Numbered from the stretch's first letter, positions 1-12,936 are shown. The stretch: 13,225 nt of DNA from a virus (IMGVR_UViG_3300045988_135330:1-13225); one strand, 5' to 3'. Numbers and translations: made by a program. Notes: generated by a model from the letters alone, not told the origin.

Positions 1-32
1 TTAAAGTACCCCCCTCTCGATAGCAAGCAGGT

Positions 33-129
33 CACTTTCCCACTTTAGCATGGTAAAGTGCTAAAGTGCTAAAGCGATAAAGCAAGACAGCAATGCTTTA
101 GTATAGTAAAGTGTTAAAGCGGTGAAGCG
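33..129. repeat. Terminal arrays of AAAG(T/C)G units in both orientations (mirrored at 13097-13193)
   Basis: CACTTT occurs at 33-38 and 41-46. Four tandem 8-bp units fill 53-84 (GTAAAGTG CTAAAGTG CTAAAGCG ATAAAGCA). GCTTTAG is at 95-101. Three more units fill 106-129 (GTAAAGTG TTAAAGCG GTGAAGCG). The extreme terminus TTAAAGTA (1-8) contains the same core. CACTTTA (41-47) and TAAAGTG (54-60) form an inverted pair. Confidence 0.85.
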
Positions 130-130
130 A

Positions 131-200
131 GTACAAATGATTGGACAGTTGGCGAGTACAAATAATTGGACTGATAAAGCGTACAAATAATTGGACAGTT
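131..200. repeat. Three direct 18-20 bp repeats spaced exactly 25 bp apart (mirrored at 13026-13095)
   Basis: GTACAAATGATTGGACAGTT is at 131-150, GTACAAATAATTGGACTG at 156-173 and GTACAAATAATTGGACAGTT at 181-200. The starts at 131, 156 and 181 are 25 bp apart. Confidence 0.9.
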
Positions 201-260
201 AGAAAATAAAAAAATAATACCTTTACGCAATAAAGAGCAAAAATATTTAGTTAAATAGAA

Positions 261-289
261 TTAACAAATACATAAAAGAAAAATATAAT
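261..289 (+). promoter_or_regulatory. Sigma-A-type promoter, outer one of the left ITR
   Basis: TTAACA (261-266), a 17-nt spacer, then TATAAT (284-289). It reads inward and sits in an A/T-rich context. Confidence 0.55.
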
Positions 290-305
290 GTTTACAAATT
301 ATTCA

Positions 306-334
306 TTGACAATGGCGGTGTAGTGTGGTATACT
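306..334 (+). promoter_or_regulatory. Near-consensus sigma-A promoter with extended -10, inner one of the left ITR
   Basis: TTGACA (306-311), a 17-nt spacer ending in TGG (326-328), then TATACT (329-334). The predicted transcription start is near 341, giving an ~84-nt leader before the ATG at 425. Confidence 0.8.
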
Positions 335-343
335 ATATATAGA

Positions 344-377
344 GTTAAGGGAGAGGACAGGAAAAGAAAACCTTAAC
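344..377 (+). other. Leader hairpin in the ITR 5' UTR (mirrored at 12849-12882)
   Basis: GTTAAGG (344-350) pairs with CCTTAAC (371-377) around a 20-nt purine-rich loop. It lies between the inner promoter and the 16-bp palindrome. The ITR substitution at 360 falls in the loop. Confidence 0.5.
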
Positions 378-393
378 AAATAAAATTTTTAAA

Positions 394-424: not shown

Positions 425-1093
425 ATGGAGAACATTATTAAATCAGAAAGCACAAACATCATGAACACATTTAAGAGTAACGCACTCAGAGAAAGTACTC
501 AGCGTATCTTTACAAGAATGGTGAATGTAGAGGATAACAAGAAAGCTATCTGTACAGACCTTGCGGAGATATACAACAAAGGTACATGGAAAGACGATTT
601 CGGCGATTTTGGGGACTACACATTGACAATGTTTAATATCACAAAGTCAACAGCAAGCCGTATGAGAAGAGTTTCCGACAAGTTCATAACTGACATCAAC
701 TCACCGCTTGACGCTGATATGTATACTTTTAATCAGCTTGCTGTACTTGTAACTCTTGACAATGAAGTCATTGAGAACTCAACTGTAAATCCAGATATGA
801 CTATAAAACAGCTGAGAGAATTTGTCAACAGTACAAAGGCTCTTGAAATGAAAGACACAGAGAAAGCAGAGAAAGCAGAGGAAGCAGAGGAAGCAGAGGA
901 AAAGGAAGAGGAAGTAACAACGGCTGATAGTTGCAACGTTGCAACTAATGAAGAGCAAGTTCCAAGAGGTATTCAGCATTTTGCAAGCCTTAAAGATTTG
1001 TCAATCTGGGTAAATGCACTCATGGAGAAAAGAGAAAACCTTGAAAATATCGACATAAGTTTTGACGTTACAACAACACACACTGAGTATTAA
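425..1093 (+). CDS. Early protein, candidate HTH DNA-binding protein with an acidic EKA/EEA repeat (222 aa)
   Basis: The ATG at 425 follows the SD GAAAGGA (411-417). The ORF-track TTG start at 395 lies inside the palindrome and is unlikely. This is the first gene downstream of the ITR promoters. The segment ICTDLAEIYNKGTWKDDFGDFGDYTLTMFNITKSTASRMRRVSDKF has the layout I associate with ParB/KorB-like or DUF3102-like helix-turn-helix regions. The CDS call is strong; the function is tentative. Confidence 0.8.
   Translation: MENIIKSESTNIMNTFKSNALRESTQRIFTRMVNVEDNKKAICTDLAEIYNKGTWKDDFGDFGDYTLTMFNITKSTASRMRRVSDKFITDINSPLDADMYTFNQLAVLVTLDNEVIENSTVNPDMTIKQLREFVNSTKALEMKDTEKAEKAEEAEEAEEKEEEVTTADSCNVATNEEQVPRGIQHFASLKDLSIWVNALMEKRENLENIDISFDVTTTHTEY
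860..913 (+). repeat. Tandem 9-bp coding repeat (GAGRAAGCA-like, 6 units)
   Basis: The units are gagaaagca gagaaagca gaggaagca gaggaagca gaggaaaag gaagaggaa, encoding EKAEKAEEAEEAEEKEEE. This is an in-frame acidic linker in the first CDS. Confidence 0.9.
930..945. promoter_or_regulatory. 16-bp double palindrome, copy 2 (perfect, intragenic)
   Basis: Exact match inside CDS 425-1093, encoding (D)SCNVAT. It ends 178 nt upstream of the next start at 1124. Confidence 0.85.
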
Positions 1094-1103
1094 CTACTCA
1101 GTG
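1081..1103 (+). other. 9-bp stem hairpin enclosing the stop codon of the first CDS
   Basis: CACTGAGTA (1081-1089) pairs with TACTCAGTG (1095-1103). The loop TTAAC contains the TAA stop (1091-1093). No U-tract follows, so it is not a classical intrinsic terminator. Confidence 0.6.
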
Positions 1104-1123
1104 TGAAAAAAGGAGTGATTATA

Positions 1124-1330
1124 ATGAAAAGGCTTTTTAAGTGCGAGCTATGCGGTAAGATTTATGAAGATGAAATAAAAGCTAAACAGTGTGAAAAAGA
1201 GCATGAATACCCATCAGAGGTTAAGCCCCTTGCTTATGGTGAGGGTTCCATATACCCATATAAAGTTAAAGTAAAGTTTGGCAATTGTGAAGCGGTTTAC
1301 AGATATGACAGCGGTTTGTGGGGTATGTAG
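1124..1330 (+). CDS. Small early protein with a zinc-finger-like CxxC-x12-C-x3-H motif (68 aa)
   Basis: The ATG at 1124 lies 8 nt after AGGAG (1111-1115). The track's GTG start at 1103 lies in the hairpin and has no SD. The relevant sequence is KCELCGKIYEDEIKAKQCEKEH. Confidence 0.75.
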   Translation: MKRLFKCELCGKIYEDEIKAKQCEKEHEYPSEVKPLAYGEGSIYPYKVKVKFGNCEAVYRYDSGLWGM

Positions 1331-1332
1331 CT

Positions 1333-1494
1333 ATGAAGATAACGATAAAATCAGTCGTAACAATCCTATTGACAATTGTTTTTTGCCTACTATCATTAGC
1401 AGGAAAGATAACAAGTGAACAGTACATGACAGTTTTTACAACTGTAATCGCATTCTATTTTGGTACTCAGTTTTCAAAAAATGGTAAAGTCTAA
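1333..1494 (+). CDS. Holin candidate (53 aa, two predicted transmembrane segments)
   Basis: This ORF is not in the supplied track, probably because it is too short; I translated it by hand as MKITIKSVVTILLTIVFCLLSLAGKITSEQYMTVFTTVIAFYFGTQFSKNGKV*. It has two hydrophobic stretches and a charged C-terminus. Its TAA overlaps the next ATG (TAATG at 1492-1496), and it lies directly upstream of the endolysin. Confidence 0.65.
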   Translation: MKITIKSVVTILLTIVFCLLSLAGKITSEQYMTVFTTVIAFYFGTQFSKNGKV

Positions 1495-1703
1495 TGTGGA
1501 GTACGATAATAGTTGCGGTGTTATCCCTGATAGGCACATTTATTGGCAGTTATTCAGGGTTTAAGCTAACAGAGTACAGGGTGCAACAATTGGAAAAACG
1601 AGTAGCAGAGCATAACAACTTTGCAAGGCGTTTACCAGTAGTAGAAGAACAAATAAAGGTAATTAACCATAGATTAACAGATTTAGAGGTAAAAGAAAAA
1701 TGA
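1494..1703 (+). CDS. Membrane-anchored coiled-coil lysis accessory protein (XhlA/BhlA-like holin-family layout, 69 aa)
   Basis: An N-terminal hydrophobic segment (WSTIIVAVLSLIGTFIGSYSGF) is followed by a charged helical region (RVQQLEKRVAEHNNF...INHRLTDLEVKEK). The gene is coupled on both sides by overlaps: TAATG upstream and ATGA at 1700-1703. Confidence 0.6.
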   Translation: MWSTIIVAVLSLIGTFIGSYSGFKLTEYRVQQLEKRVAEHNNFARRLPVVEEQIKVINHRLTDLEVKEK

Positions 1704-2368
1704 CGTTTAAGGAATATATTTCTAAAACCCTAGGAAAATCAATTGAGTTTGACGGGGTTTACCCTTATCAGTGTTGCGACTTAGTTAATGACTATATGCA
1801 GAAATGTTTCAATGTTTTTACATACTACCCCTATAATTTTAACGCTCAGCAGTATTTCACAAGGTTCAATGAGGTATCAGCTCTTGTAAAAAATTTTACA
1901 AAAATTTCAAATACTCCTGAGTTTGTACCAATGCAAGGTGATATTTGTATTTTTAAGTCGCCTGACAACATCGGACACATCTCAATAGCAACTGGTGAGG
2001 GAAATACAAGCTATTTTTACAGTTATGACCAAAACTGGAACGGGCACAACTTTGTAGCAAAAGAGAGACATACTTATACTAATTTCTTAGGGGTTCTGAG
2101 ATATAAAGGCAATGCACTTGACACAACAGGACTAAAACGCGGTGATAATAATGCAGGAGTTTACGCTTACAAAATGATGTTAAAATTGGCAAAGACTTGT
2201 AAAATAATTAGTGCAGGTGTTGATTTTAACGGAATTTACGGAAAAGGCACTGAAAAGGCTACAAACGAGATTTTGCGAAAGTTAAAAAAGAAAGAAAACG
2301 GAATAGCAGGAGTAAAACTGGTCAATGCACTTTATGAAGCTATTCTTGACAAAATAGTTAATTTTTAA
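1700..2368 (+). CDS. Endolysin: N-terminal CHAP domain plus C-terminal PG_binding_1-like domain (222 aa)
   Basis: The CHAP catalytic signature is present: YPYQCCDLVNDYM (Cys), GHISIATG (His) and YDQNWN. The C-terminal GDNNAGVYAYKMMLKLA...DFNGIYGKGTEKATNEILRK fits the peptidoglycan-binding repeat pattern. The SD AGAGGT lies 8-9 nt upstream. Confidence 0.9.
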   Translation: MTFKEYISKTLGKSIEFDGVYPYQCCDLVNDYMQKCFNVFTYYPYNFNAQQYFTRFNEVSALVKNFTKISNTPEFVPMQGDICIFKSPDNIGHISIATGEGNTSYFYSYDQNWNGHNFVAKERHTYTNFLGVLRYKGNALDTTGLKRGDNNAGVYAYKMMLKLAKTCKIISAGVDFNGIYGKGTEKATNEILRKLKKKENGIAGVKLVNALYEAILDKIVNF

Positions 2369-2521
2369 CAGTTAATACGTTATGTGAGCATTTAACAATA
2401 CAACAGCAAATTGATAATAATTAACATTACAAAATAAGAGTGCTAAACCGCTATTGTTATTTTAACGTACATAACTATTATATTAAACAAATTACAAAAA
2501 CATGGAAAGAGGTTTTAAAAC

Positions 2522-2860
2522 ATGAACGGATTTAACGTAAACATGACTAAAAAGGATATTTTTAACGCTAAGAGCGGAAGTATCTCAATCAAGACAGCAG
2601 AGGCGAGCGAGTGGAATACTGTTTCTGGTTGTGCAGTGGTAGAAAATGGTGGACTTGACAGAGATAAGAAGCCATGTGATATAGGTTACATTGCTACAGA
2701 TATTGGAGTTTTCGGATTCTCTTCAAAGGTATGCATTGACCACATGGAAGAACTGGCAGATATTCTTAGCGACTGCCTTAATGACGGCGAAGAAGTAAAG
2801 GTAAGATTTGTCAAAGGCAAGTCAACCAAGGGAGAGTTTTATTCAATCCAGGTACAGTAA
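2522..2860 (+). CDS. Single-stranded DNA-binding protein candidate (phi29 p5-like, 112 aa)
   Basis: The SD GAAAGAGG (2505-2512) precedes the start. DIFNAKSG, the central YIATDIGVFGFSSKV and the C-terminal VKVRFVKGKSTKGEFYSIQV resemble phi29 p5 as I recall it (IFNAQTG ... FKVKVVQGTSSKGNVFFSLQL). The size is also similar. Confidence 0.5.
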   Translation: MNGFNVNMTKKDIFNAKSGSISIKTAEASEWNTVSGCAVVENGGLDRDKKPCDIGYIATDIGVFGFSSKVCIDHMEELADILSDCLNDGEEVKVRFVKGKSTKGEFYSIQVQ

Positions 2861-2874
2861 ATAACAAATCGGAA

Positions 2875-2902
2875 AACGTGGCAATAAAAAAGTTGCCACG
2901 TT
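2875..2902 (+). other. 10-bp stem hairpin built from a half-site plus the first part of palindrome copy 3
   Basis: AACGTGGCAA (2875-2884) pairs with TTGCCACGTT (2893-2902) around the loop TAAAAAAG. It lies just after the stop of CDS 2522-2860. Confidence 0.7.
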
Positions 2903-2907
2903 GCAAC
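2892..2907. promoter_or_regulatory. 16-bp double palindrome, copy 3 (variant GTTGCCACGTTGCAAC)
   Basis: One substitution, A to C at 2897. Its reverse complement, GTTGCAACGTGGCAAC, is identical to the variant at 8447. It ends 23 nt before the portal ATG at 2931. Confidence 0.85.
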
Positions 2908-2930
2908 CGATTGAAAAGGGGTGAAGAAAA

Positions 2931-3875
2931 ATGGGTTCAAAAATAAAGCCGTGGAACTGGAGTGAATTCGGAGTTTCAAACATCGATAAAACACAATTAA
3001 CGAGCTACTATTATAAAATGTTGCTAAATCGTGTTATCAATATGTTTACATGGGAGAACTTACCAAATACCATCGATGAACAGGTGATGAACTTTTGGCT
3101 ATTTGTGACAGGAAGAGTTGTGTTTACCGAGTTCAATGGAAAACTGTATGCACTAAATGGAAATTATGGCGGATATCCAAATGAGTACTATTTACCTACA
3201 GAATTTGTTATTGCAAATCCAATTTTAGGAAATAAAATTGTAAAGTTGGACGTTGACGGGGTGGCAATGTTTAATAGCGATACTGACAAATACCCCACAC
3301 AAACAATGACGGGTGGTTTATACCCTATACTAACACTAACGGCAAATATGTTAGCTGATTGTGTGGTAACAATATCCAGTGCATTGAAAAACGGCAGAGT
3401 TCAAACCGCATTTTTGTGCAAAGACGATACGGTAAGAATTGCAGGTGAAAAAGTTTTAAAACAGTTATATAATGGTAACCCCGCTGTCATGATTGACGAC
3501 ACTATACTAAATTGCATTTCGCCAATCAAAATGGCAGATAATACAAGCGTCGCTACAATTCTACAGCAGACGGTTGAAACATATCAATTTTGGCTTGCAA
3601 ATTTTTACAATTCAATTGGAGTAAATGCAAATTTCAATATGAAAAGAGAACGGCTAAATACAGCAGAGGTTAACATCAATGATAGTGCATTGTTTGTGAA
3701 TGTTGTAAATATGCTAAACAACAGACAGCAGGCACTTGAAAAAATTAACAAAATGTTTGGTACAAACATAACTGTTGAGATTTCTGAGGAATGGAAAGAC
3801 TTGACAGAAACTGAGGAAAACCCTACAGAGAAAGAGCCTACAGAGGAAGAGGGGGGAAGACAATGCGGAAGATAA
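2931..3875 (+). CDS. Portal (upper collar / connector) protein, phi29 gp10-like (314 aa)
   Basis: MFTWENLPNTIDEQ matches the FEWENLPPTIN motif I recall near the N-terminus of phi29 gp10. The length (~310 aa) and acidic C-terminal tail also fit. The SD AAGGGGTG lies 7 nt upstream. Confidence 0.85.
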   Translation: MGSKIKPWNWSEFGVSNIDKTQLTSYYYKMLLNRVINMFTWENLPNTIDEQVMNFWLFVTGRVVFTEFNGKLYALNGNYGGYPNEYYLPTEFVIANPILGNKIVKLDVDGVAMFNSDTDKYPTQTMTGGLYPILTLTANMLADCVVTISSALKNGRVQTAFLCKDDTVRIAGEKVLKQLYNGNPAVMIDDTILNCISPIKMADNTSVATILQQTVETYQFWLANFYNSIGVNANFNMKRERLNTAEVNINDSALFVNVVNMLNNRQQALEKINKMFGTNITVEISEEWKDLTETEENPTEKEPTEEEGGRQCGR

Positions 3876-4540
3876 TAACGTTAAATAAATGGGTTGAATT
3901 ATTCCCCACTATACAGACTATTTTTGATAAGGTATCAGCAGACTTGAAAATATTTACAATTTTTACATCAGCTGAAATGTTTTATTATTTTGCAGATAAG
4001 TTTGGCGAGCGTGATTTTTACAAGTTTTATGATAGTGAAAACACAACAAGTAACACTAACATGGTAAAACAAGCAAGCGACTATATAGCATTATATGGAA
4101 AATCTCACAAGTACGAATATGACAAGTTAGTTGACACTCTATCATTGGAATATAATCCCATTGAAAACTATTCCATGACAGAAAAAGGAACAGACACAAG
4201 AACACCAAACATCACGCAAACAAACAAGGGTGTAAATACAAATACTGTAGGTGTTGACACATCAATTACAACTGGAAAGACAACTTTTGACAAATTTGAT
4301 AGTTTTATCAATGATACAAAAACTACCAATACGGGAACTAATACCGATACGCAGGATATAAACACTACAGTTACCACGGCAGGAAATGAAAAAACTGTAC
4401 ATGAATTTACAAGAAGTGGTAATATAGGAGTTACAACGTCACAGCAGATGATTGAAAGCGAAAGAGAGTTAGCAATGTTCTCTGTAGTTGATTTATTTGC
4501 GAAAGCTATAGCTGATATAATTCTAATCGGCGTATATTAA
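3863..4540 (+). CDS. Lower collar (tail tube) protein candidate, gp11-like (225 aa)
   Basis: It follows the portal gene with a 13-nt overlap and has the strong SD GAGGGGGGA. LEYNPIENY and GNIGVTTSQQMIESE are motifs I associate with lower collar proteins of small podophages. There is a central Thr/Asn-rich low-complexity stretch. Confidence 0.6.
   Translation: MRKIITLNKWVELFPTIQTIFDKVSADLKIFTIFTSAEMFYYFADKFGERDFYKFYDSENTTSNTNMVKQASDYIALYGKSHKYEYDKLVDTLSLEYNPIENYSMTEKGTDTRTPNITQTNKGVNTNTVGVDTSITTGKTTFDKFDSFINDTKTTNTGTNTDTQDINTTVTTAGNEKTVHEFTRSGNIGVTTSQQMIESERELAMFSVVDLFAKAIADIILIGVY
4513..4521 (+). promoter_or_regulatory. Extended -10 promoter candidate (TGATATAAT)
   Basis: TG-A-TATAAT lies at 4513-4521, inside the 3' end of the lower-collar gene and 20 nt upstream of palindrome copy 4. 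There is no good -35. Confidence 0.35.
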
Positions 4541-4541
4541 A

Positions 4542-4557
4542 GTTGCAACGTTGCAAC
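4542..4557. promoter_or_regulatory. 16-bp double palindrome, copy 4 (perfect)
   Basis: Exact match, preceded by AAA. It starts 1 nt after the lower-collar stop and ends 24 nt before the ATG at 4582. Confidence 0.9.
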
Positions 4558-4581
4558 TAGGAAAGGAGAAAAAATAAAAAA

Positions 4582-4902
4582 ATGCAAAAAGTGAGAAGTC
4601 CAACTTTTGCTGAAAATTATGTCAATTTAGCGAGAGCAGTTGTATTAAAAGTAGTAGTAGATACACTCCAAAACAAGGAAGATTTAAAAGACTATATTTT
4701 ATATAGTGATGATTTTGTGTTTTGGTTATGCCTTGCAGATTGGTTAAAATATGAAAATGTTATTAAAGATAAGGTTTCATGTTTTAAAGGGATTGACAAT
4801 ACGCTAAGAAAGAAACTAAATAACTATTATCGCTTAAAAGGCGAAGAAATGAAAAGAGGTAAATTATATGAAAGTTACACAAATTGCCACAATTTTGAAT
4901 GA
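4582..4902 (+). CDS. Hypothetical protein (106 aa), located where phi29 carries its scaffold gene
   Basis: The ORF follows palindrome copy 4 and AGGAAAGGAG, although the SD-to-ATG spacing of ~13 nt is long. It overlaps the capsid gene by 35 nt. I recognise no motifs. Confidence 0.55.
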   Translation: MQKVRSPTFAENYVNLARAVVLKVVVDTLQNKEDLKDYILYSDDFVFWLCLADWLKYENVIKDKVSCFKGIDNTLRKKLNNYYRLKGEEMKRGKLYESYTNCHNFE

Positions 4903-6025
4903 AGCACAGCAGGAGATAATCGGAGAAGCCGCAATAACAACGGAAAATCTTGAAAACGTTGTTGATATGGGCAAGCAGATTTTGGAAGCTACAGACGTTG
5001 ACAACTATGTTCGCAAGCTGATTGACAAAGTCGGCAGAATGATTTTTGTAGACAGGGTTTACAACTCAACAGCTCCTGATATTTTGACGGATAGTTGGGA
5101 GTATGGCTATGCAATGCAAAAAGTCCGCTGTGAAATGCCTGACGCAGTTGAGAATGACAGTTGGAAATTGACAAACGGTCAGAGTTATGACCCATTCGTA
5201 TTTACAGCTCCTGACGTGCAGTCAAAATTTTATGATAGCAAGGTAACGTACGAAGTGCAGATGTCATTTACAGAAATGCAGGTCAAGAGTGCATTTAATT
5301 CACCTGCTGAAATGAATAGCTTTTTTGCTATGATTGAGAACAGAATACGTTTTAAGCTCACTTTGTCAAATGACATACTTAAAACACGAACTGTTAATAA
5401 TCTTATCGCAGAGAAGATACACAGCAATAACAATGTTGTTAATCTTTTGACAATGTATAACACAGAGTTTACTCAGACCCTGAAAGCAGACCATGCTCTT
5501 ATGGATAAAGATTTTCTAAGATATGCAATTGGCAAAATCAAGGAGTATATCAAGTACATTCAGCGTCCGTCAATGCTGTTCAATGACGGCGGTTACACAA
5601 CTTTCACTCCTGAAAGTGACATGAAAATGGTGCTTTTGTCACGATTTGTAAATACTGCTGAGGTTTATCTACAGAGTGACACGTTCCACAATGACCTTGT
5701 GAAGCTAAGTGGTTATTCTGAGGTTCCATACTGGCAGGGTAGCGGAACGGGTGAAACGTTTGATTTTGCAGAAATTTCAAAAATCGATGTTACAACTGCT
5801 AGCGGTAACAAGGTATCTCAGATAGGTATTATTGGAACTATTTTTGACAGAGACGCTTGTATGGTCTGCAATGCTAATCCGAGGGTTACAAGTATTTACA
5901 ATCCAAAAGGAGAATATTGGAATTACTTCTACAAATACGATGCAAGCTATTTCAATGATACCATGGAAAACTGTGTTGTATTTATAGTAGCAGACACAGC
6001 AAAAAAAACCAGTATAACAAAATGA
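4868..6025 (+). CDS. Major capsid protein, phi29 gp8-like (385 aa)
   Basis: The SD AAGAGGT lies 8 nt upstream. NPKGEYWNYFYKYD resembles the NPRGLYWNYYY motif I recall near the end of the HK97-fold part of phi29 gp8, and LIDKVGRMIFVDR resembles LVDRIGLVVIRQ. The size and position also fit. Confidence 0.8.
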   Translation: MKVTQIATILNEAQQEIIGEAAITTENLENVVDMGKQILEATDVDNYVRKLIDKVGRMIFVDRVYNSTAPDILTDSWEYGYAMQKVRCEMPDAVENDSWKLTNGQSYDPFVFTAPDVQSKFYDSKVTYEVQMSFTEMQVKSAFNSPAEMNSFFAMIENRIRFKLTLSNDILKTRTVNNLIAEKIHSNNNVVNLLTMYNTEFTQTLKADHALMDKDFLRYAIGKIKEYIKYIQRPSMLFNDGGYTTFTPESDMKMVLLSRFVNTAEVYLQSDTFHNDLVKLSGYSEVPYWQGSGTGETFDFAEISKIDVTTASGNKVSQIGIIGTIFDRDACMVCNANPRVTSIYNPKGEYWNYFYKYDASYFNDTMENCVVFIVADTAKKTSITK

Positions 6026-6033
6026 TAGTTAAA

Positions 6034-6061
6034 ACGTTGCAACCCTAAAAAGTTGCAACGT
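6034..6061 (+). other. 10-bp stem hairpin built from a half-site plus the first part of palindrome copy 5
   Basis: ACGTTGCAAC (6034-6043) pairs with GTTGCAACGT (6052-6061) around the loop CCTAAAAA. It lies just after the capsid gene stop. Confidence 0.7.
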
Positions 6062-6067
6062 TGCAAC
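6052..6067. promoter_or_regulatory. 16-bp double palindrome, copy 5 (perfect), with an extra half-site GTTGCAAC at 6036-6043
   Basis: Exact match. It ends 19 nt before the ATG at 6087 and is followed by TATATT and the SD GAGGTG. Confidence 0.9.
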
Positions 6068-6086
6068 TATATTGAGGTGAGAAAAA

Positions 6087-6587
6087 ATGCCAATTATAAC
6101 AACGTATCAATGTTCGCAGGACGTGAGAACAATTTCAAAAACGTTAACAAATGCAATAGAGTATAATTGTGAAATACTGGATACTATGAACAGTTTTTCA
6201 CCCCGTATAAGATTATTTTGCACGTCCGAAACGTTTAATGCAAATATGGTGTATATACCATTTTTTGATAGGTTTTATCATATAATTTCAGCAGACGTTG
6301 AGAGTGCTGAAACCATTATTTTACAATGCGAGTTTGATATATTTACCTATTCAGTAGCACTACTATCTAGCGAATTTTTAGTTACTAGAAATGAAAATAT
6401 ATGTAGCACATATATCCCTGATACAATGTTACCATTAAAAGGTAATAAGGAAATGAAAGTAATTGAATTTACTGGCGGAGATTTTAACCTTGACACTGCC
6501 ACGGCAAATAGTTACAATTTTGTGCTAAATGTTGCAGGCGGTGGAAGTAATCAAGGAACGGTGGAAAACGGGGGATTGGACACATGA
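6087..6587 (+). CDS. Tail knob N-terminal-domain-like protein (166 aa)
   Basis: The SD GAGGTG lies 7 nt upstream. ANMVYIPFFDRFYHIISADVESAETIILQCEFDIFTY resembles the N-terminal part of phi29 gp9 as I recall it (...YIMFQN..KWFYAFVTELEF...HFEIDVLQTW). The gene ends in an ATGA overlap with the next ORF. Confidence 0.55.
   Translation: MPIITTYQCSQDVRTISKTLTNAIEYNCEILDTMNSFSPRIRLFCTSETFNANMVYIPFFDRFYHIISADVESAETIILQCEFDIFTYSVALLSSEFLVTRNENICSTYIPDTMLPLKGNKEMKVIEFTGGDFNLDTATANSYNFVLNVAGGGSNQGTVENGGLDT
6490..6518 (+). promoter_or_regulatory. Near-consensus sigma-A promoter candidate inside a coding region
   Basis: TTGACA (6490-6495), a 17-nt spacer, then TACAAT (6513-6518). It lies about 65 nt upstream of the ATG at 6584. 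Confidence 0.35.
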
Positions 6588-8671
6588 AATTAAATCAAGA
6601 AATTTATTCTAGTGATCGCAGTATATCACTAGAATTTTTAAAGGGGATTAAAACTACACAATCAATGAAAACATTAATTGATAATGGTAAATTACAGTTA
6701 AATAATACCATTGATGAAACAATTTTTTATGCGGTTGATTTTAACCCTCCTGACGATTATTTTATAAGAAGTGGGTATCGTAAACCTCATCAATCGGAAT
6801 TTGTTAAGGGAACGAAAACTCCGAGCGGTGTATGCGCTATGTTTGGTAGATTAAATACTAATGATACATTACAAAATCGCCCCTCACTTGGTAACCAAAC
6901 TATAACTACATATCATAGACTGGCATATGATAGTGACAAGAGTGATAGTTTAGGCTATTATTTTGGCACTGAGTATAAATTGAAAGATTTTCTTTTTTTG
7001 ATTCGTGTGATAGTGAGTAAATTTGAATATTCTGATATGGGTGACGTATCGTCATTTAGTGATAAAATTGACGTAGACGTACAAACATTTGAAACCACAT
7101 ATAAAAATACACATCATATTGTAGGAATATACGCACTACCATATTATTTAAGAGCTGAACATCATGATAGAAAACGATGTCAGGGGTTTAATATTATACC
7201 ATTTTGCACATATTCAAAAAATTCTATTACGGATAATTATGATATTTATGGCGCGTTATATTTTAGCGATTATGATCAGTCACACGCTGTTTTAAATACG
7301 TTTATGTATGGGGTTGATGACATATACCCTTCTTATTTTAATACCTATGATTATGTTTATGCAAATTTAGGGTTTATTGATTTGTGGAATAAAACATATT
7401 TTGCTATTGGTAGTAATGAATATACGGGATATTTACCAGTTTTCAATTATAGCATAGAAAACATTCATAAATTATATAGCAGAATGGGAACATATTACAC
7501 ATTTTCGGAAAATTTAGCAAAGCAGGAAAATCTAAACCAAAATGGAATATATTGCGGTATTATATCAGACGATGGAAAAATCACTGGAAAATATTCTGAG
7601 GGTGTAGAAAATGCAAAACAAATACAGACAACATGGGATAAGCCGACAGATTGGCAAAATAACCCATTTAACGGCATAGGCAATACAGACCCAAACAATT
7701 ACACTGATAAAATAGACCTAAACAAACCGACGCTATCTAATGTGAATGTTTTCAATAGGTCATTTGCGGTCACGTCAAATAATGTTCGTCAACTTGCTGA
7801 TTTTTTGTGGAACGCTGACGAGACTAAATTTCAAGAAATTGTAAAAGGGTTAGCGTTAATGGGTGAAAACCCTATGAATGGCATTATTGACTTGCGTTTA
7901 TTTCCGTTTAATGTGGCGTTAAAAAATTCTGCAACAAATGCCGAGCCTATTGTGATAGGCAGAACGAACACGGGCGTAAATGGTATTAAACTAACGGAAA
8001 ATGTAAACAGTTTAATTGATTTAGGTGAATGCACATTTTTTACTAAATTCAAAAATTTCCTAGATTATGAACCATACACAACAGCACAACTATACATCCC
8101 ATATATAGGGGTAGTACCAGTTTCAACAGCTGAATTTATGGGACATAGAATATCGGTTAAAATGATAGTTGACTATACCACGGGTGCAAGCACTGCGATA
8201 GTCTTCAAAGACGATATACCGTTTATTTACAGAAATGGTGTAGTAGGCATATCAATTCCAATGACTGGAAATGATAGTGCAAGTTATGCTAACACAGTTA
8301 TCGGCAATGTAGTTAGCGGTGCAGTAGGCGGCGTAACATCAATTGCTAGTGGAAATATCGGCGGAATGGTTAGCAGTGCAGAAAAAATTTACAGCGGTTT
8401 TACAACTGGTACGAATTACCAAGAGGCGAGTGCAAGTTCTCCATCTGTTGCAACGTGGCAACCGCAAAAGTGCTATTTCATTATTGACCGCCCTATTTTA
8501 AATGTACCTGATAATTACGGGCGAACGATTGGTTTTGCGTGTGAAAAAACTGGTAAACTATCAGATTTTAAGGGTTTTACAGTTGTTAGCAACCCTGAAA
8601 TAAATTTCAGGTGTACAGACAGCGAAAGACAATATATAGTAAATATGTTACAAGGCGGTGTATTTGTATGA
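6584..8671 (+). CDS. Tail knob (distal tail) protein, gp9-like C-terminal portion with a large inserted or unknown N-terminal region (695 aa)
   Basis: QLYIPYIGVVPVSTAEFMGHRISVKMIVDYTTG, the Gly/Ala/Ser-rich hydrophobic stretch GNVVSGAVGGVTSIASGNIGGMVSS, and the C-terminal GFACEKTGKLSDFKGFTVVSNPEINFRCTDSERQYIVNMLQGGVFV resemble phi29 gp9 as I recall it (YPYC..., its GGGISAGASAAGGSALGMASS loop, and its C-terminal KYGY...ISGDI...IRTIFDNGI). Confidence 0.6.
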   Translation: MKLNQEIYSSDRSISLEFLKGIKTTQSMKTLIDNGKLQLNNTIDETIFYAVDFNPPDDYFIRSGYRKPHQSEFVKGTKTPSGVCAMFGRLNTNDTLQNRPSLGNQTITTYHRLAYDSDKSDSLGYYFGTEYKLKDFLFLIRVIVSKFEYSDMGDVSSFSDKIDVDVQTFETTYKNTHHIVGIYALPYYLRAEHHDRKRCQGFNIIPFCTYSKNSITDNYDIYGALYFSDYDQSHAVLNTFMYGVDDIYPSYFNTYDYVYANLGFIDLWNKTYFAIGSNEYTGYLPVFNYSIENIHKLYSRMGTYYTFSENLAKQENLNQNGIYCGIISDDGKITGKYSEGVENAKQIQTTWDKPTDWQNNPFNGIGNTDPNNYTDKIDLNKPTLSNVNVFNRSFAVTSNNVRQLADFLWNADETKFQEIVKGLALMGENPMNGIIDLRLFPFNVALKNSATNAEPIVIGRTNTGVNGIKLTENVNSLIDLGECTFFTKFKNFLDYEPYTTAQLYIPYIGVVPVSTAEFMGHRISVKMIVDYTTGASTAIVFKDDIPFIYRNGVVGISIPMTGNDSASYANTVIGNVVSGAVGGVTSIASGNIGGMVSSAEKIYSGFTTGTNYQEASASSPSVATWQPQKCYFIIDRPILNVPDNYGRTIGFACEKTGKLSDFKGFTVVSNPEINFRCTDSERQYIVNMLQGGVFV
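8447..8462. promoter_or_regulatory. 16-bp double palindrome, copy 6 (variant GTTGCAACGTGGCAAC, intragenic)
   Basis: One substitution, T to G at 8457. It lies inside the tail gene and encodes VATWQ(P). It ends 205 nt before the start at 8668. Confidence 0.8.
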
Positions 8672-9219
8672 TGAATGAACATTTTGCAAGCGGTTTAACA
8701 AATGAGCAATTGAAAGCGGAGATTTTAAGGCAAGGGCGTAAAGCAAATTTACGCCTAAACCAATTGAAAAAAAGTGGAATGTACAGCAAAAACCCCATAA
8801 TTTCTAGTAAATGGAATACGTTTTTACACGAAAGTAAATTCTCAACAAAAAAGAATTTTTTTAAGACAGGTACAAAAGGTGAAACAAGAACAGAATTGTT
8901 AAAACACTATGTACAGATTAGACAGTTTTTAGGACAAAAAACGACAGTGAAAGAAACGAAAACTATCATGTCAAAACACGCAAAACGTTTAAATATTTCT
9001 GAGGAAAATGTTGATAAAGTTCTATCAATTTTTGGTAATAGCGGAATAAGTGCGGAGTTACCTAACAGCGATTTTGTGCAACAGTTTATTGCTGAAATGG
9101 TTGAAAATGGGTTTAATGATAATGAAATAAATTCATTGTTGAATACCCTTGAAAGTTCAGCACGAACACAAAATGAAATGTACGACTTAATGCGTGAGCA
9201 ATTACAAATGCTTGAATAG
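8668..9219 (+). CDS. Candidate terminal (priming) protein (183 aa)
   Basis: The ATG at 8668 overlaps the upstream stop (ATGA) and follows the SD AAGGCGGTG. The track's earlier start at 8611 lies deep in the tail gene. The gene sits immediately upstream of the protein-primed DNA polymerase, as in phi29. The basic N-terminal QGRKANLRLNQLKKSG loosely resembles the phi29 TP segment NTKAKIARTKKKYG. The function is tentative. Confidence 0.45.
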   Translation: MMNEHFASGLTNEQLKAEILRQGRKANLRLNQLKKSGMYSKNPIISSKWNTFLHESKFSTKKNFFKTGTKGETRTELLKHYVQIRQFLGQKTTVKETKTIMSKHAKRLNISEENVDKVLSIFGNSGISAELPNSDFVQQFIAEMVENGFNDNEINSLLNTLESSARTQNEMYDLMREQLQMLE

Positions 9220-9234
9220 TTGCAACGTTGCAAC
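9219..9234. promoter_or_regulatory. 16-bp double palindrome, copy 7 (perfect)
   Basis: Exact match. It overlaps the last base of the upstream TAG stop and ends 22 nt before the DNA polymerase TTG start at 9257. It is flanked by TTGAAT upstream and TATTTG downstream. Confidence 0.9.
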
Positions 9235-9256
9235 TATTTGTAAAGGGGTGTAATAG

Positions 9257-11395
9257 TTGATAAATGTAAATGATTTTGATTTTAACATTCTTAAAAATGG
9301 TAATTTACAAACAGTTACAACCCGTACAAGAGATAATCAGTTTATTGAATATTATAACGCTCCGTTTGCATTTGATATTGAAACGAGTTCATTTTATGAC
9401 GGAAAAAATAAACGTGCGTGTATGTACATTTTTATGTTTGCATTAAATGGAAATTATGTATATGGCAGAACATGGGAAGATTTTGACTTTACATTAAATA
9501 AGTTAAAAGAAGTGTTACAATTAAATGAATACAAAAGAATTATAATATATATTCACAATTTAGGCTATGAATTCCAATTTTTAATCGGTCATGAGCGTTT
9601 TAAAGATGTTTTTGCGAGAAACGCACGCCACCCGATTAAGTGTACTATGAATGAGTGTTTTGATTTAAAGTGCAGTTTAATGCTCAGTGGTATGAGTTTA
9701 GCAAAAACAGCGGAAGACCTGACAAGTGTAAAAATACAAAAATTAACAGGTGATTTGAATTATAAACTTGTAAGAACATGGAAAACCCCTCTAACACAAG
9801 AAGAATTAGGATATTGCGAATATGACGTTAAAATATTACACTATTTTATACTTGAAGAAATGGCAAAAAATGATAATGATATAACAAAAATACCATTAAC
9901 TAAAACAGGGTATGTAAGAAAATATTGCCAAAACTACATTAAAAAACACACATATTATCCAAAATATAGAGAGAAAATAAAAAAGATAGCCCCAATTGAT
10001 AAAGATTTATTTTGTTTATTACATAAAACTTTTATGGGCGGTTATACTCACGCTAACTATATGTATGTGGGAACGGTGCTTGAAAATGTTGCCAGTATCG
10101 ACTTTACAAGCTCTTATCCGTCCGTTATGATTAGAAAAAAGTACCCCATGCAACCATTTACAAAAGTTCACATAAAAGATTTAACAGATTTTAAATATTG
10201 TATTAAAAATTATCCTTGTGTTTTTGAGGTAGAATTAACTAACGTTATTGCTAAAAAATGTAATCACATTTTATCACGTTCAAAATGTTCTGTTTGTGAT
10301 AATGCGGTAGTTGATAATGGTAGAATTGTATCGGCAGATAGAATATTTACATATTTTACAGATATTGACTTTAAGGACTTTGAACAATTTTATTCTTATG
10401 AACATTTGTCAATTGGTAAATTTTACACGTCAAGTTATGGATATTTGCCTAAACAAATTATAGAATGTGCGTTAAAATTTTACAACGATAAGACAACATT
10501 AAAAGGCGTAGCAGGAAAAGAGGTTGAGTACCTAGTCGGCAAAGGAATGCTAAATAGTTTGTTTGGTATGTGTGTGACAAATCCTGTAAATGATGATATT
10601 GTTTTTGACGGAAAAGAATGGAATACAGAAAAGAAAGATATTACGGAATCATTACAAGAAAATTACATAAAAAATAAAAAGCAAGTGTTAGTATATCAGT
10701 GGGGAGTGTGGATAACGGCATGGGCAAGGCATGAACTTTTTAAGGGTATATTAAAAATTAATAATGATGTTATTTATTGTGATACTGATAGCATAAAATT
10801 TTTAAACTATGAGAATTATGAAAACTGGATAAATGAATATAATAAAAACTGTATTAACGAGATAAATAAGGCTTTAAATTATTATGAAATTAATTTGAAT
10901 TTGGCTAAACCTAAAACAATTAAAGGTGTTGAAAAGCCGTTAGGGGTATGGGATTTTGAGGGAGTTTATTCAAAATTCAAAACGTTAGGCGCAAAGCGTT
11001 ATGCCTATGAGCAAGACGAAAAATTTAATATTACAGTTTCAGGGTTAAATAAAAAGTGTGCCGTTCCGTACATAGTTGCAACGTTGCAACCGTTTGAATT
11101 TTTTGACAATGAAATGTATATACCTAAAGAATATACAGGAAAAAATACATTAACATATATTAATGACCCCTACAAAATTATGATAAAAGACTATCAGGGA
11201 AATTATGCAAAAGTGGCAGAAAATAGTTATATCCACATGGAGGAGCAAGATTATAACATGTCACTATCTGAACAATTCATATATTATTTAATTTGTGGTA
11301 CAAATTTCGGTGGCGGAGCAAAAGAGCATACATTATTTGAAAAAAGTCAAGAATTGGCTACAAATTTTTGGGAGTGTGATTTTAATGAGAAATGA
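9257..11395 (+). CDS. Family-B, protein-primed-type DNA polymerase (712 aa)
   Basis: The translation contains FAFDIETSS (ExoI), HNLGYEFQF (ExoII), YCEYDVKIL (ExoIII), DFTSSYPSVM (motif A, Dx2SLYP), KGMLNSLFGM (motif B, Kx3NSxYG), YCDTDSIKF (motif C) and LGAKRYAY (KxY). The TTG start at 9257 lies 6 nt after AAGGGGTG. An in-frame TAG sits at 9254-9256, and the first in-frame ATG lies after ExoI, so a non-ATG start is required. Confidence 0.95.
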   Translation: MINVNDFDFNILKNGNLQTVTTRTRDNQFIEYYNAPFAFDIETSSFYDGKNKRACMYIFMFALNGNYVYGRTWEDFDFTLNKLKEVLQLNEYKRIIIYIHNLGYEFQFLIGHERFKDVFARNARHPIKCTMNECFDLKCSLMLSGMSLAKTAEDLTSVKIQKLTGDLNYKLVRTWKTPLTQEELGYCEYDVKILHYFILEEMAKNDNDITKIPLTKTGYVRKYCQNYIKKHTYYPKYREKIKKIAPIDKDLFCLLHKTFMGGYTHANYMYVGTVLENVASIDFTSSYPSVMIRKKYPMQPFTKVHIKDLTDFKYCIKNYPCVFEVELTNVIAKKCNHILSRSKCSVCDNAVVDNGRIVSADRIFTYFTDIDFKDFEQFYSYEHLSIGKFYTSSYGYLPKQIIECALKFYNDKTTLKGVAGKEVEYLVGKGMLNSLFGMCVTNPVNDDIVFDGKEWNTEKKDITESLQENYIKNKKQVLVYQWGVWITAWARHELFKGILKINNDVIYCDTDSIKFLNYENYENWINEYNKNCINEINKALNYYEINLNLAKPKTIKGVEKPLGVWDFEGVYSKFKTLGAKRYAYEQDEKFNITVSGLNKKCAVPYIVATLQPFEFFDNEMYIPKEYTGKNTLTYINDPYKIMIKDYQGNYAKVAENSYIHMEEQDYNMSLSEQFIYYLICGTNFGGGAKEHTLFEKSQELATNFWECDFNEK
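11075..11090. promoter_or_regulatory. 16-bp double palindrome, copy 8 (perfect, intragenic)
   Basis: Exact match inside the polymerase gene, encoding VATLQ(P). It ends 294 nt upstream of the ATPase start at 11385. Confidence 0.85.
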
Positions 11396-12476
11396 ATACT
11401 ATTCACTAAAAAAGATTAATAAGTTAAATGCTTTATACAATTTAATTATAGGGCAACGCTCAAACGGAAAAACTTACGCAGTATGTGAACAGGAAGTAAA
11501 AGGAAATTTTAAAGAGGGGTATAGAATGGCATATATTAGAAGATATGATGAGGAAATTATGCCAAAAAATATACAAAATCTGTTTAAGCCCCATTCAGCT
11601 TTAATTGAAAAATTATCCAACGGCCAGTTTAACAGCACTGTATACAAGAATAGGGAATTTTTCCTATATAATACAGATACGGAAGAAAAAAGTGAACAAA
11701 GTTTTTGCAAGTGTTTTTCCCTTAATGCGTGGGAACGTACAAAAGGTGCTGACAATGGTTACTTTAAATATATACTATTTGACGAATTTATGACCCGTTC
11801 TTTTTATCTTAATAATGAATTTGTTACATTTACTAACCTTTTATCATCTATTATTCGTGATAGAGATAATTCAATTATTTACATGATAGCCAATACAGTA
11901 AACCAGTACTGTCCGTATTTTGCGGAAATGGGTTTAGGCAAAATTTCAGATATTAAACAGGGCGACTTGAAATTATTTACATATGGTGAAAGTGAGCTAA
12001 CACTAGCCCTTGAATATTCTGACAGTAAGGGTAAAACGGAAAAAGTTAGTAAATATTTTGCTTTTGACAATCCTCAATTGAAAATGATAACAACGGGGCA
12101 GTGGGAAATTAAAAACTACCCACACGCACCATTTAAAATTAAAAAAGAAAATATAGTATACAGAGCATATATATTCTTCGACAATGACGTCATCGCGTGC
12201 AATATTGTGCATTATGAAAATACTGTTTTTCTATTTTTTAACATTCAGACAAAAACGGAAAGCCTTGATTTAAAAAAAAGAGTTGTGTACAGTTTTGAAA
12301 CTGACACGAACCCTCTACACGTTCAATCACTAGCAGAACAACCGACAGATGTACATAAACTTATTAATAATTTAATAACATTTAATCGTGTGTTTTATGC
12401 GGATAACTCAGTAGGTGAAATTGTTAGAAACTGGATAAACGCACAAAACAAGCACGCTATCAGTATAAGGACATAA
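11385..12476 (+). CDS. DNA encapsidation (packaging) ATPase, phi29 gp16-like (363 aa)
   Basis: The ATG at 11385 follows the SD GGGAGTG and overlaps the polymerase 3' end by 11 nt. The track's start at 11295 has no SD. Walker A (GQRSNGKT) and Walker B (KYILFDEF) are present. The size and last-gene position match phi29-type packaging ATPases. Confidence 0.85.
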   Translation: MRNEYYSLKKINKLNALYNLIIGQRSNGKTYAVCEQEVKGNFKEGYRMAYIRRYDEEIMPKNIQNLFKPHSALIEKLSNGQFNSTVYKNREFFLYNTDTEEKSEQSFCKCFSLNAWERTKGADNGYFKYILFDEFMTRSFYLNNEFVTFTNLLSSIIRDRDNSIIYMIANTVNQYCPYFAEMGLGKISDIKQGDLKLFTYGESELTLALEYSDSKGKTEKVSKYFAFDNPQLKMITTGQWEIKNYPHAPFKIKKENIVYRAYIFFDNDVIACNIVHYENTVFLFFNIQTKTESLDLKKRVVYSFETDTNPLHVQSLAEQPTDVHKLINNLITFNRVFYADNSVGEIVRNWINAQNKHAISIRT

Positions 12477-12815: not shown

Positions 12816-12831
12816 GTTGCAACGTTGCAAC
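12816..12831. promoter_or_regulatory. 16-bp double palindrome, copy 9 (perfect)
   Basis: Exact match inside ITR-R. It lies 17 nt upstream, in the minus-strand sense, of the ATG at 12798. Confidence 0.9.
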
Positions 12832-12920: not shown

Positions 12921-12936
12921 TGAATAATTTGTAAAC

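Follow-up and report, generated by a model that had tools for sequence, protein, structure and literature searches.

Two-tier hairpins with conserved pairing after the SSB-like and capsid genes of a phi29-like gut phage: candidate 3'-end elements of the upstream messages

Two hairpins built on a repeated 16-bp palindrome stand directly after the SSB-like gene and the major capsid gene of a phi29-like phage, and comparison with relatives shows selection on their pairing. By position and analogy they may well serve as 3'-end-forming or 3'-end-stabilising elements that raise the levels of the SSB-like and capsid messages, a reading that we hold with about even confidence. The stretch analysed (13,225 nucleotides, hereafter the window) is a complete 13.2-kb phage genome from the human gut. 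All genes from 425 to 12476 lie on the + strand, downstream of promoters in the terminal repeat (393 nt, 99% complementary); the rightward transcript, which carries both hairpins, probably starts from the promoter-like sites at 261-334. The main features are:

261 to 334, + strand: pair of strong sites resembling sigma-70-type promoters (11/12 matches each), within the terminal repeat, mirrored at 12965-12892
2522 to 2860, + strand: SSB-like gene (112 aa), directly 5' of the first hairpin
2867 to 2912, + strand: two-tier hairpin at the portal junction (-23.8 kcal/mol, z -6.8)
4868 to 6025, + strand: major capsid protein gene (Pfam Phi29_MCP, E 1.8e-54), directly 5' of the second hairpin
6025 to 6070, + strand: two-tier hairpin at the capsid junction (-20.9 kcal/mol, z -5.7)
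12481 to 12506, no strand assigned: canonical bidirectional intrinsic terminator from a terminator scan (10-bp G+C-rich stem, T runs)

The label 'SSB-like', given in the preliminary description, is backed by fold comparison. The AlphaFold2 model of the 112-aa protein (pLDDT 92) has podovirus and tectivirus ssDNA-binding proteins as its best Foldseek matches in a viral library (TM about 0.7, E 5e-7), which supports a predicted SSB fold for this gene product. In phi29, p5 and p8 are required in high copy number, and by analogy the SSB-like and capsid proteins would be needed at high dosage here.

Both elements are 46 nt long and contain 17 bp (6 + 11), with internal loops AA/GCAA and AA/GC (2+4 or 2+2 nt). 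At the portal junction, an outer stem of 6 bp (2867-2872/2907-2912) is separated by an internal loop (2873-2874 and 2903-2906) from an inner stem of 10 bp plus a closing U.G (2875-2885/2892-2902), capped by a loop at 2886-2891. The capsid-junction hairpin has an outer stem of 6 bp (6025-6030/6065-6070), an inner stem of 11 bp (6033-6043/6052-6062) and a loop at 6044-6051; its first base coincides with the final A of the capsid stop TGA (6023-6025). The hairpins start 0-7 nt past the upstream stop codon and end 3-4 nt before the next ribosome-binding site. The minimum-energy fold accounts for 57-69% of the ensemble at both sites, and none of 200 shuffled controls folded as stably as either element. 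The composite sites at the core of these structures, AACGTGGCAA-TAAAAAAG-TTGCCACGTT at 2875-2902 and ACGTTGCAAC-CCTAAAAA-GTTGCAACGT at 6034-6061, are where the preliminary description had placed them. Folded as DNA, the hairpins have energies of -15 and -14.6 kcal/mol. It had given each a 10-bp stem with an 8-nt loop; the hairpins are real, but the capsid stem has 11 bp, the portal stem 10 bp plus U.G, and the outer 6-bp helix had been missed. The portal-junction left arm is an inverted copy of the site that includes its non-palindromic flank (AATCGG...CCGATT).

The palindrome GTTGCAACGTTGCAAC is perfect, is composed of two palindromic 8-mers and occurs nine times in the genome (seven exact copies and two with one mismatch, versus 0.08 expected). 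Because it is palindromic, a nearby partial copy automatically pairs with a full copy. The copies, listed without strand and with the degenerate copy at the capsid junction, are:

394 to 409: 16-mer bordering the left terminal repeat on its inner side, within the 5' leader of the first rightward gene
930 to 945: 16-mer within gene 1, reading S C N V A T
2892 to 2907: copy 3, variant GTTGCCACGTTGCAAC, whose first 11 nt form the 3' arm of the inner stem
4542 to 4557: 16-mer that follows the stop codon of gene 3863-4540 and precedes the ribosome-binding site of gene 4582
6028 to 6043: degenerate left copy GTTAAAACGTTGCAAC (2 mismatches), 24 bp 5' of the full copy, giving the 5' arm
6052 to 6067: copy 5, exact, at the capsid junction
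8447 to 8462: variant GTTGCAACGTGGCAAC within the tail gene, reading V A T W Q
9219 to 9234: 16-mer between the stop TAG (9217-9219) and the DNA polymerase ribosome-binding site
11075 to 11090: 16-mer within the DNA polymerase gene, reading V A T L Q
12816 to 12831: 16-mer in the 5' leader of leftward gene 12801-12529, the mirror image of copy 1

Six of the nine copies sit 15-24 nt 5' of a start codon, and at 9219-9234 the flanks lengthen the palindrome to an 11-bp stem. The 16-mer itself may act as an RNA hairpin or as a DNA operator. Its least constrained positions in relatives are 6 and 11, and C6 of copy 3 is kept in 19/19 genomes of the clade. The variants at 2892 and 8447 had been taken as one substitution recurring three times, which was not borne out. 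Palindromy makes the two reverse complements, because an A6>C change reads as T11>G on the opposite strand. In the 8447 variant, G11 occupies the second position of a Trp codon (GTT GCA ACG TGG CAA) conserved in every clade examined, and was rejected as a recurrent regulatory substitution.

The pairing is strongly conserved in relatives. Across 18 distinct relatives, 99% of the 306 cells at the portal junction are paired; eight pairs vary on one side only, and always to G.U. At the capsid junction, the inner helix is fully paired in all 13 distinct sequences, L110 and L111 included, and 5 of its 11 pairs have compensatory changes on both sides. Of 500 shuffles, 0-1 attain the observed values and none the observed score, and sliding the partners out of register reduces pairing to 24-47%. 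Unpaired cells are absent from the inner stems (0/198 portal, 0/143 capsid); the terminal and internal loops differ among relatives in both length and sequence, the terminal loop having 4-9 nt. RNAalifold by itself predicts both two-tier structures from the relatives, and they are the same as those folded from the window. The compensatory change on which the preliminary description had rested its argument is G2880-C2897 at the portal junction where the capsid junction has U6038-A6057; among the 13 distinct orthologues of the capsid junction, 6 show this same T-A to G-C exchange. Left arms depart from the motif consensus yet still pair (the arm of L091 is AACGTGGTGGC), and in L033 a right-arm A>G is tolerated as U.G. 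All these counts are of sequences, not of events, and part of the covariation may have spread through exchange of whole junction modules; L053 has a window-type junction inside a 92% clade.

The variants also distinguish between strands. G.U variants occur in 12 pair columns and A.C in 2; with A.C columns 9-46 of A3 set aside for their different pairing in L110 and L111, the count is 12 versus 1 (binomial p = 0.0017). Read on the - strand, pairing at the portal junction falls from 99% to 89%. Since G.U variants work on the + strand only, the selected structure lies in the mRNA-sense strand. The preliminary description had counted against itself any loss of the half-sites from relatives that keep the 16-mer. 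Such a loss is seen at the portal junction of L110 and L111 (83-84% relatives), where the upstream arm is absent and the motif still present, but their capsid junction still pairs. The portal-junction site is therefore a recent addition that the lineage does not require.

Neither hairpin is followed by a U-tract, as previously noted: the following sequences, GAAAAGGGG and AUUGAGGUG, do not contain at least 5 U in 8 nt. The terminator scan called neither junction on the + strand, whereas it called 12481-12506, an example of a real terminator in the same genome. Of the features of an intrinsic terminator, a stable stem-loop directly after the gene is present and a U run is not, so efficient intrinsic termination is unlikely. 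Rfam covariance models gave no match at the hairpins and only two chance-level matches elsewhere in the window. Two features of an intercistronic stabiliser were found, namely a strong intercistronic hairpin, within one transcript, whose pairing is conserved, and a position after cistrons presumably needed in highest amount.

Several more distant relatives also have a hairpin after the capsid gene. Among those without the motif, Phanie, astrithr, L096, L113 and L131-L133 have a canonical hairpin and U-tract terminator exactly after the capsid gene. A strong G+C hairpin without a long U run follows the capsid gene in L137 and L138, and in L117 and L118 a G+C-rich hairpin is followed by their own motif; the distant relatives L130, L134-L136 and L095 have no post-capsid hairpin. 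In phi29, a Rho-independent terminator lies just past genes 6 and 5 (SSB) and is thought to favour p5 and p6 production (PMC11476376). As in these phages, a stable hairpin directly follows the SSB or capsid gene within a long transcription unit, a placement that there too would favour those products over downstream ones. However, their terminators are canonical, G+C-rich and provided with a U-tract, whereas the hairpins described here lack one and are made from a repeated palindrome. It is from the strong conserved folds, the + strand pairing, the position after the SSB-like and capsid genes and the terminators at equivalent sites that we infer a function as 3'-end elements.

Under this reading, part of the palindrome, copied by inversion or duplication, would have come to sit 6-8 nt 5' of a full copy, and the left copy would then have drifted from the consensus with its complementarity to the right copy retained. 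Both composite sites would be RNA structures of the rightward polycistronic message, the 17-bp hairpin folding on transcription and forming or protecting the 3' end of the upstream message. It might do so as a barrier to 3' exonucleases, as a weak terminator without a U-tract or as a site of double-strand-specific cleavage. The SSB-like and capsid messages would then outlast or outnumber the downstream cistrons. As a side effect, the first 11 nt of the 16-mer would be held in the long stem at both junctions and the 16-mer would not fold on itself there. Intercistronic stem-loops stabilise the upstream message in the puf operon, at the malE-malF REP sequences and in papBA. These systems, and the RNase III sites of T7 and SP82, share with the present case a strong intercistronic hairpin after the gene needed most; here, however, the duplex is only 17 bp and its sequence is shared with a genome-wide repeat.

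Several other explanations were weighed. The 16-mers may be operators, or sites resembling a centromere, that a dimeric DNA-binding protein recognises, with the hairpins as a by-product and the composite sites as two cooperatively bound sites, the candidate binders being the early gene-1 product, a ParB/KorB-like protein or a host protein. We consider this unlikely, although it accounts for much about the 16-mer: its perfect dyad symmetry, its identity in seven copies, and its maintenance inside genes, where third codon positions are variable at 1/5 sites in the motif versus 32/40 in the flanks at 8447-8462 and at 1/5 versus 28/40 at 11075-11090 (together 2/10 versus 60/80, p = 0.001). In L110, one intragenic copy persists although this entails a Leu>Gly change. 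At these junctions every clade carries a palindrome of its own, L115 and L116 have an exact parS consensus after the capsid gene, and the two full palindromes of L115 have the 24-bp spacing of the capsid-junction copies. Gene-1 homologues are present in all motif-bearing clades and in none of the motif-less ones. Left unexplained are the restriction of left-arm changes to those keeping G.U on the + strand and the five pairs changed on both sides; moreover, the inverted left arm of the portal junction, flank included, is not a direct repeat of a binding site. In L110, gene 1 is truncated (40 aa), yet seven motif copies are kept, and the gene-1 product has no family match and a poor structure model (pLDDT 47). 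Genomes of the phi29 family carry parS sites bound by the host Spo0J, five of them in phi29 (PMC2731898). There too, a small phage genome with protein-primed replication holds a 16-bp palindrome in several dispersed copies, but the window 16-mer agrees with the consensus TGTTNCACGTGAAACA at only 6/16 positions. In bacterial genomes, the 18-mer obtained by extending it with its flanks turned up at 11 loci over 596 Gb, about the roughly 9 expected by chance. The stoperators of Cluster A mycobacteriophages and the KorB operators of RK2 are likewise protein-binding sites, ten to thirty per small genome and many in intergenic gaps. The likeness lies in one short site repeated through a small genome with many copies in short gaps between genes; protein binding has been shown for them, whereas the present copies are candidate sites only, and stoperators are asymmetric.

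It is also rather improbable that RNase III or a similar endonuclease cuts the two-tier hairpins and divides the long transcript into individual messages, as happens in T7 and SP82, which would leave the inner hairpin on the 3' end of the SSB or capsid message and a short 5' leader on the next gene. This overlaps with our preferred reading as 3'-end elements, and the architecture, 17 bp in two coaxial helices around a small internal loop between cistrons, resembles T7 RNase III sites, which have two helices around an internal loop. RNase III usually requires about two helical turns of double-stranded RNA, or roughly 20 bp, often with an internal loop, and the duplexes here are shorter; in L110 and L111 the internal loop has shrunk to a 2-nt bulge, and L110 has 20 bp. 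The preliminary description had left room for a switch in which the long hairpin alternates with the 16-mer's own 6-bp hairpin, giving attenuation or antitermination. The two folds are indeed mutually exclusive, both needing 2892-2902 or 6052-6062, and a ribosome halted at the end of the capsid gene (stop codon 6023-6025) would mask the outer stem together with some of the 5' arm, which makes translation-dependent alternation conceivable. The switch nevertheless seems very improbable: the long folds (-21 and -24 kcal/mol, against -8 for the 16-mer alone) are ahead by about 13-16 kcal/mol, their 5' arm is the first part to be transcribed, both folds lack a U-tract, and neither a leader peptide nor an alternative pairing or third partner was found. 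The strand asymmetry by itself would also fit hairpins in single-stranded DNA, since the two sites, at 2.9 and 6.1 kb of 13.2 kb, belong to the left half of the genome, in which protein-primed replication displaces the + strand from the left end; DNA tolerates G.T wobbles, and the DNA folds have the energies given above. We find this very doubtful, as we know of no role for such hairpins in phi29-type replication and it fails to explain their placement between stop codon and ribosome-binding site after two high-dosage genes, which an RNA element does. Least probable of all, the arms might be decaying duplicates without function. Duplication of a palindrome yields a hairpin for free and the portal arm is clade-specific, but decay would break pairs, which is contradicted by the fully paired inner stems and the covariation counts.

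Among known repeats, the arrangement recalls the SAS of Cluster K mycobacteriophages, a short motif with many copies just upstream of the start codons of some genes; in about half of these copies an imperfect inverted repeat, with a spacer of 4-13 bp, extends the motif (ESAS), and the consensus differs by subcluster with the sites staying at the same genes (PMC3203893). Here too, the motif precedes the start codons of a subset of genes (6/9 copies) and is extended by an inverted repeat in 2/9. The SAS is asymmetric, 13 bp long, in one orientation and overlaps the ribosome-binding region, whereas the 16-mer is a perfect palindrome 5' of a separate ribosome-binding site. Sequence, phage family and host are unrelated, and the extension described here has clear RNA-type covariation.

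A 17-bp two-tier hairpin lies immediately 3' of both the SSB-like gene (2522-2860) and the capsid gene (4868-6025), ending 3-4 nt before the next ribosome-binding site. Each contains the 16-mer GTTGCAACGTTGCAAC, a palindrome repeated along the window, together with an upstream element. At the portal junction, the stretch after the SSB-like gene, an outer stem (2867-2872/2907-2912) encloses an inner stem (2875-2885/2892-2902; -23.8 kcal/mol), and the left element repeats the right one in inverted orientation, non-palindromic flank included. At the capsid junction (outer stem 6025-6030/6065-6070, inner stem 6033-6043/6052-6062; -20.9 kcal/mol) a degenerate 16-mer lying 24 bp before the full copy serves as the left element. 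Both hairpins have z of about -6, and no shuffled sequence folds as well. The outer stems, AAUCGG/CCGAUU at the portal junction and AUAGUU/AACUAU at the capsid junction, are unrelated in sequence, yet both are paired. The preliminary description gave sequences and coordinates that are correct; the composite hairpins it reported exist, but it saw only part of each, as a 10-bp stem. Its suggested switch with the 16-mer's own short hairpin is not supported: the long fold is more stable by some 13-16 kcal/mol, and transcription produces its 5' arm first.

The window is a complete linear genome with inverted terminal repeats (393 nt, 99% complementary). The + strand carries all genes from 425 to 12476, and one early gene, with a 90-aa product, runs leftward from the right end. 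The main features are as follows.

Features of the window
1-393 and 12833-13225: inverted terminal repeats
32-130: short TAAAGTGC-type repeats, in terminal repeat
131-212: three direct repeats of 25 nt, in terminal repeat
261-289 and 306-334, and mirror images: two strong sigma-70-type promoter-like sites per terminal repeat
2931-3875, + strand: phi29-type connector
4868-6025, + strand: Phi29_MCP capsid protein
12481-12506: canonical bidirectional intrinsic terminator, between the convergent packaging ATPase gene and leftward early gene

The genome also encodes a CHAP lysin, a protein-primed type B DNA polymerase and a gp16-type packaging ATPase. An Rfam scan of the whole window gave no relevant match, and a phi29-type packaging RNA (pRNA) was not found, despite the gp16-type ATPase and the phi29-type connector. 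Megablast against known phages returned no match, relatives being detected at the protein level only; the nearest cultured ones are Astrithrvirus phages (capsid identity 41-46%), and close relatives come from human gut metagenomes. The start of the capsid gene is overlapped by 35 nt (4868-4902) by the preceding 106-aa gene, and ATGA overlaps occur at several other gene pairs; the genes thus form translationally coupled blocks with the 16-mers between them. Small phi29-like phages appear to transcribe nearly all their genes as one or a few long messages and hence need means for gene-specific output.

Conservation of the hairpins was assessed in 18 close relatives from IMG/VR and 10 from metagenomes, the latter adding no new stem variants, and in intermediate relatives found through the capsid protein (L110 and L111, 83-84% identity; L113, 70%; L115-L118, 58-62%). 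Across 18 distinct portal junction sequences, 99% of 306 cells are paired, the inner stem completely; seven of 11 inner pairs and one outer-stem pair vary one-sidedly, always to G.U, while the loop (4-8 nt) and the internal loop vary. The inner helix of the capsid junction is 100% paired in 13 distinct sequences, including L110 and L111, and shows two-sided changes at five of 11 pairs (A-U to C-G, A-U to G-C, C-G to U-A, U-A to G-C and C-G to U-A). Counts for both junctions are per sequence, not per event, and some states may have spread by exchange of the whole junction module, for example in L053. The values observed at the capsid junction are reached by 0-1 of 500 shuffles, and pairing drops to 24-47% when the partners are slid. 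Unguided RNAalifold recovers exactly the same two-tier structures at both junctions. The kept pairing, the two-sided changes and the RNAalifold result together support well the proposal that the hairpin is preserved by covariation.

The variation also indicates which strand is selected. G.U variants are found in 12 pair columns and A.C in two; for one of the latter (9-46 of A3) the pairing is different in L110 and L111, and the comparison was therefore counted as 12 versus 1 (p = 0.0017). Read on the - strand, pairing at the portal junction decreases from 99% to 89%. From these comparisons, the G.U excess and the lower - strand pairing, the selected structure is taken to be that of the mRNA-sense strand. 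A terminator on the - strand, the side on which the T-runs lie, was rejected: the G.U pairs turn into A.C mismatches there. Formation of the hairpins as DNA in a displaced strand, which would fit the location of both sites in the left half of the genome, is improbable. There is clear comparative evidence that the extension would act through base pairing in one strand.

The apparent threefold recurrence of a single substitution in the 16-mer, reported previously, follows from palindromy and a conserved Trp codon. In a palindromic consensus, A6>C on one strand is necessarily T11>G on the other. The G in the copy at 8447 is part of a Trp codon (V-A-T-W-Q) conserved in every clade. Positions 6 and 11 are the most variable among relatives, and the motif consensus of L110 and L111, GTTGCC-NNNN-GGCAAC, places each of the two window variants half-way towards it. 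The coincidence of three like substitutions has little weight.

The 112-aa product of the SSB-like gene has a confident model (pLDDT 92), whose best matches in a viral structure library are predicted ssDNA-binding proteins of podoviruses and tectiviruses (TM about 0.7, E 5e-7). A PDB fold search gave nothing significant, and no family was matched in Pfam, PHROGs or NCBIfam. Given this fold match, both hairpins would follow genes for the products needed in the largest amounts. We infer that the hairpin is a 3'-end-forming or 3'-end-protecting element on the message that raises the level of the upstream cistron relative to downstream ones. It might do so as a barrier to exonuclease, as a weak terminator lacking a U-tract or as a double-strand-specific cleavage site. 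Both hairpins lack the U-tract required of intrinsic terminators. The terminator at 12481-12506 does have one, and the contrast speaks against efficient intrinsic termination at the hairpins.

Intercistronic stabilizing stem-loops and RNase III sites occur in other operons and phages, and the window hairpins resemble them functionally. A functional parallel also exists with the terminators that phi29-like phages have after the SSB and capsid genes. One of these, a Rho-independent terminator immediately beyond genes 6 and 5 (SSB) of phi29, has been proposed to favor production of p5 and p6 (PMC11476376). The closest layout is the SAS/ESAS of Cluster K mycobacteriophages, a start-associated repeat with subcluster-specific consensus, a subset of which has an added imperfect inverted repeat, the spacer being 4-13 bp (PMC3203893). 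Unlike SAS/ESAS, the window motif is palindromic, unrelated in sequence and carried by an unrelated phage; it is therefore not a member but a second, independent case of a start-associated repeat with an extended inverted repeat.

Other clades carry their own palindromes at the junctions shared with the window: upstream of the scaffold/capsid block and of the polymerase gene, downstream of the capsid gene, and in the terminal leaders.

Clade-specific palindromes
L110 and L111: GTTGCC-N4-GGCAAC, 4-nt centre free
L117: GTTGCTA-AA-TAGCAAC
L118: TTGCGC-NN-GCGCAA

Two relatives with about 61% capsid identity, L115 (5373-5414) and L116 (5886-5903), have the exact parS consensus TGTTTCACGTGAAACA directly after the capsid gene, L115 in two copies 24 bp apart that form a 16-bp hairpin; both genomes also encode a 103-aa sigma-70 region-4/GerE-like protein. 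The window 16-mer does not match the parS consensus. Relatives without the motif (L113, Phanie, astrithr, L096 and L131-L133) have a canonical hairpin and U-tract terminator after the capsid gene, and L137 and L138 a strong G+C hairpin that lacks a long run of U. At the remaining motif junctions of L113, genes overlap. A strong post-capsid hairpin is thus widespread, though not universal, in the lineage, and the window clade builds it from the palindrome. The portal junction of L110 and L111 has the simple motif only, so the composite there is younger than that at the capsid junction. The sites provide a clean, comparatively supported case in which local duplication converted a genome-wide palindromic repeat into a long RNA hairpin, placed after the two highest-amount genes where an ordinary terminator is found in relatives. 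L095, a distant relative that has a gene-1 homologue, carries a distinct palindrome sharing the AACGTT centre, TTCAAACGTTTGAAA, immediately upstream of ribosome-binding sites (3905 and 6622).

The hairpins are also an entry point to the repeated palindrome itself. The 16-mer, the palindromic 8-mer GTTGCAAC twice in tandem and as a whole also a perfect palindrome, occurs in seven exact and two one-mismatch copies versus 0.08 expected. Six follow a stop codon and precede the next ribosome-binding site, ending 15-24 nt short of the start codon; the other three are intragenic. A literature search with the motif string gave no match for a 12-mer and primers only for the 8-mer. As read from the sequence, TGGCAA...TTGCC does not fit a sigma-54 promoter (GG and GC are 15 apart rather than 12, and the GG is missing at the capsid site), and the window copies have no correctly spaced partner hexamer for a sigma-70 -35 or -10 element.

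The 16-mer could be an RNA hairpin, consistent with its exact position between stop codon and ribosome-binding site and with arms that co-vary around a free centre between clades. It could also be a DNA site such as an operator, for which phi29 parS is a precedent (PMC2731898). Copies are identical within one genome, and intragenic copies are conserved at synonymous sites: third codon positions vary at 2 of 10 inside the motif versus 60 of 80 in the flanks (p = 0.001). One of these, the polymerase-gene copy, tracks the clade consensus (GTTGCAACGTTGCAAC at 11075-11090 in the window versus GTTGCCACAGGGCAAC at 10261-10276 in L110 and 10517-10532 in L111) at the expense of a Leu to Gly change in the protein, so that the nucleotide motif takes precedence over the protein sequence. 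The DNA-site reading also draws on the fact that the motif and the early gene-1 protein occur together.

The product of gene 1 (425-1093), the first early gene, is helical and has an HTH-like stretch (FNITKSTASRMRRV); the gene contains an acidic 9-nt tandem repeat (858-902) and the 16-mer copy at 930. Homologues are present in every motif-bearing clade (L111, L117, L118 and L095), a close one being named DUF3102 by one database source. The product has no match in Pfam, NCBIfam or PDB, and its AlphaFold2 model (pLDDT 47) is too poor for a fold search. A role as the binding factor is disfavored: the protein matches no family, and in L110 gene 1 (38-160) is cut to 40 aa while seven motif copies are kept. 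Another protein, of 58 aa, follows the motif in its phyletic distribution; being a two-helix membrane (holin-like) protein, it was rejected as a binding factor.

The same 16-18-mer recurs in multiple copies, mostly before gene starts, in phage contigs of 34-66% G+C. The exact (A)GTTGCAACGTTGCAAC(T) is present in 3-13 copies each in L042, L032, L021, L029, L003/L051 and L023 from IMG/VR and in the Treponema MAG contigs L100/L109. BLASTP found no protein common to the window and these unrelated contigs, among which the sole cross-group pair is an ordinary SSB; a Pfam census of 85 ORFs found no common family, and a gene-1 profile search no homologue. The 18-mer occurs at chance level in bacterial genomes, and an IMG/VR scan with the sister-clade motif GTTGCCACGTGGCAAC gave 12 loci, almost all single-copy, near a rough chance estimate. 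The recurrence before gene starts in unrelated phages raises the idea of a system or factor shared horizontally across phage families, in which the palindrome and its clade versions would punctuate a genome-length transcript, a phage factor reading each copy as RNA hairpin or operator to set expression per cistron and the composites being copies deliberately masked by the upstream arm; we regard this as unlikely. The first copies in L042 (719) and L032 (230) each overlap a promoter-like site at its -10. In L100 and L109, A-runs and T-runs border the copies in the manner of bidirectional terminators, and L109 encodes a ParA-like ATPase (183-1094).
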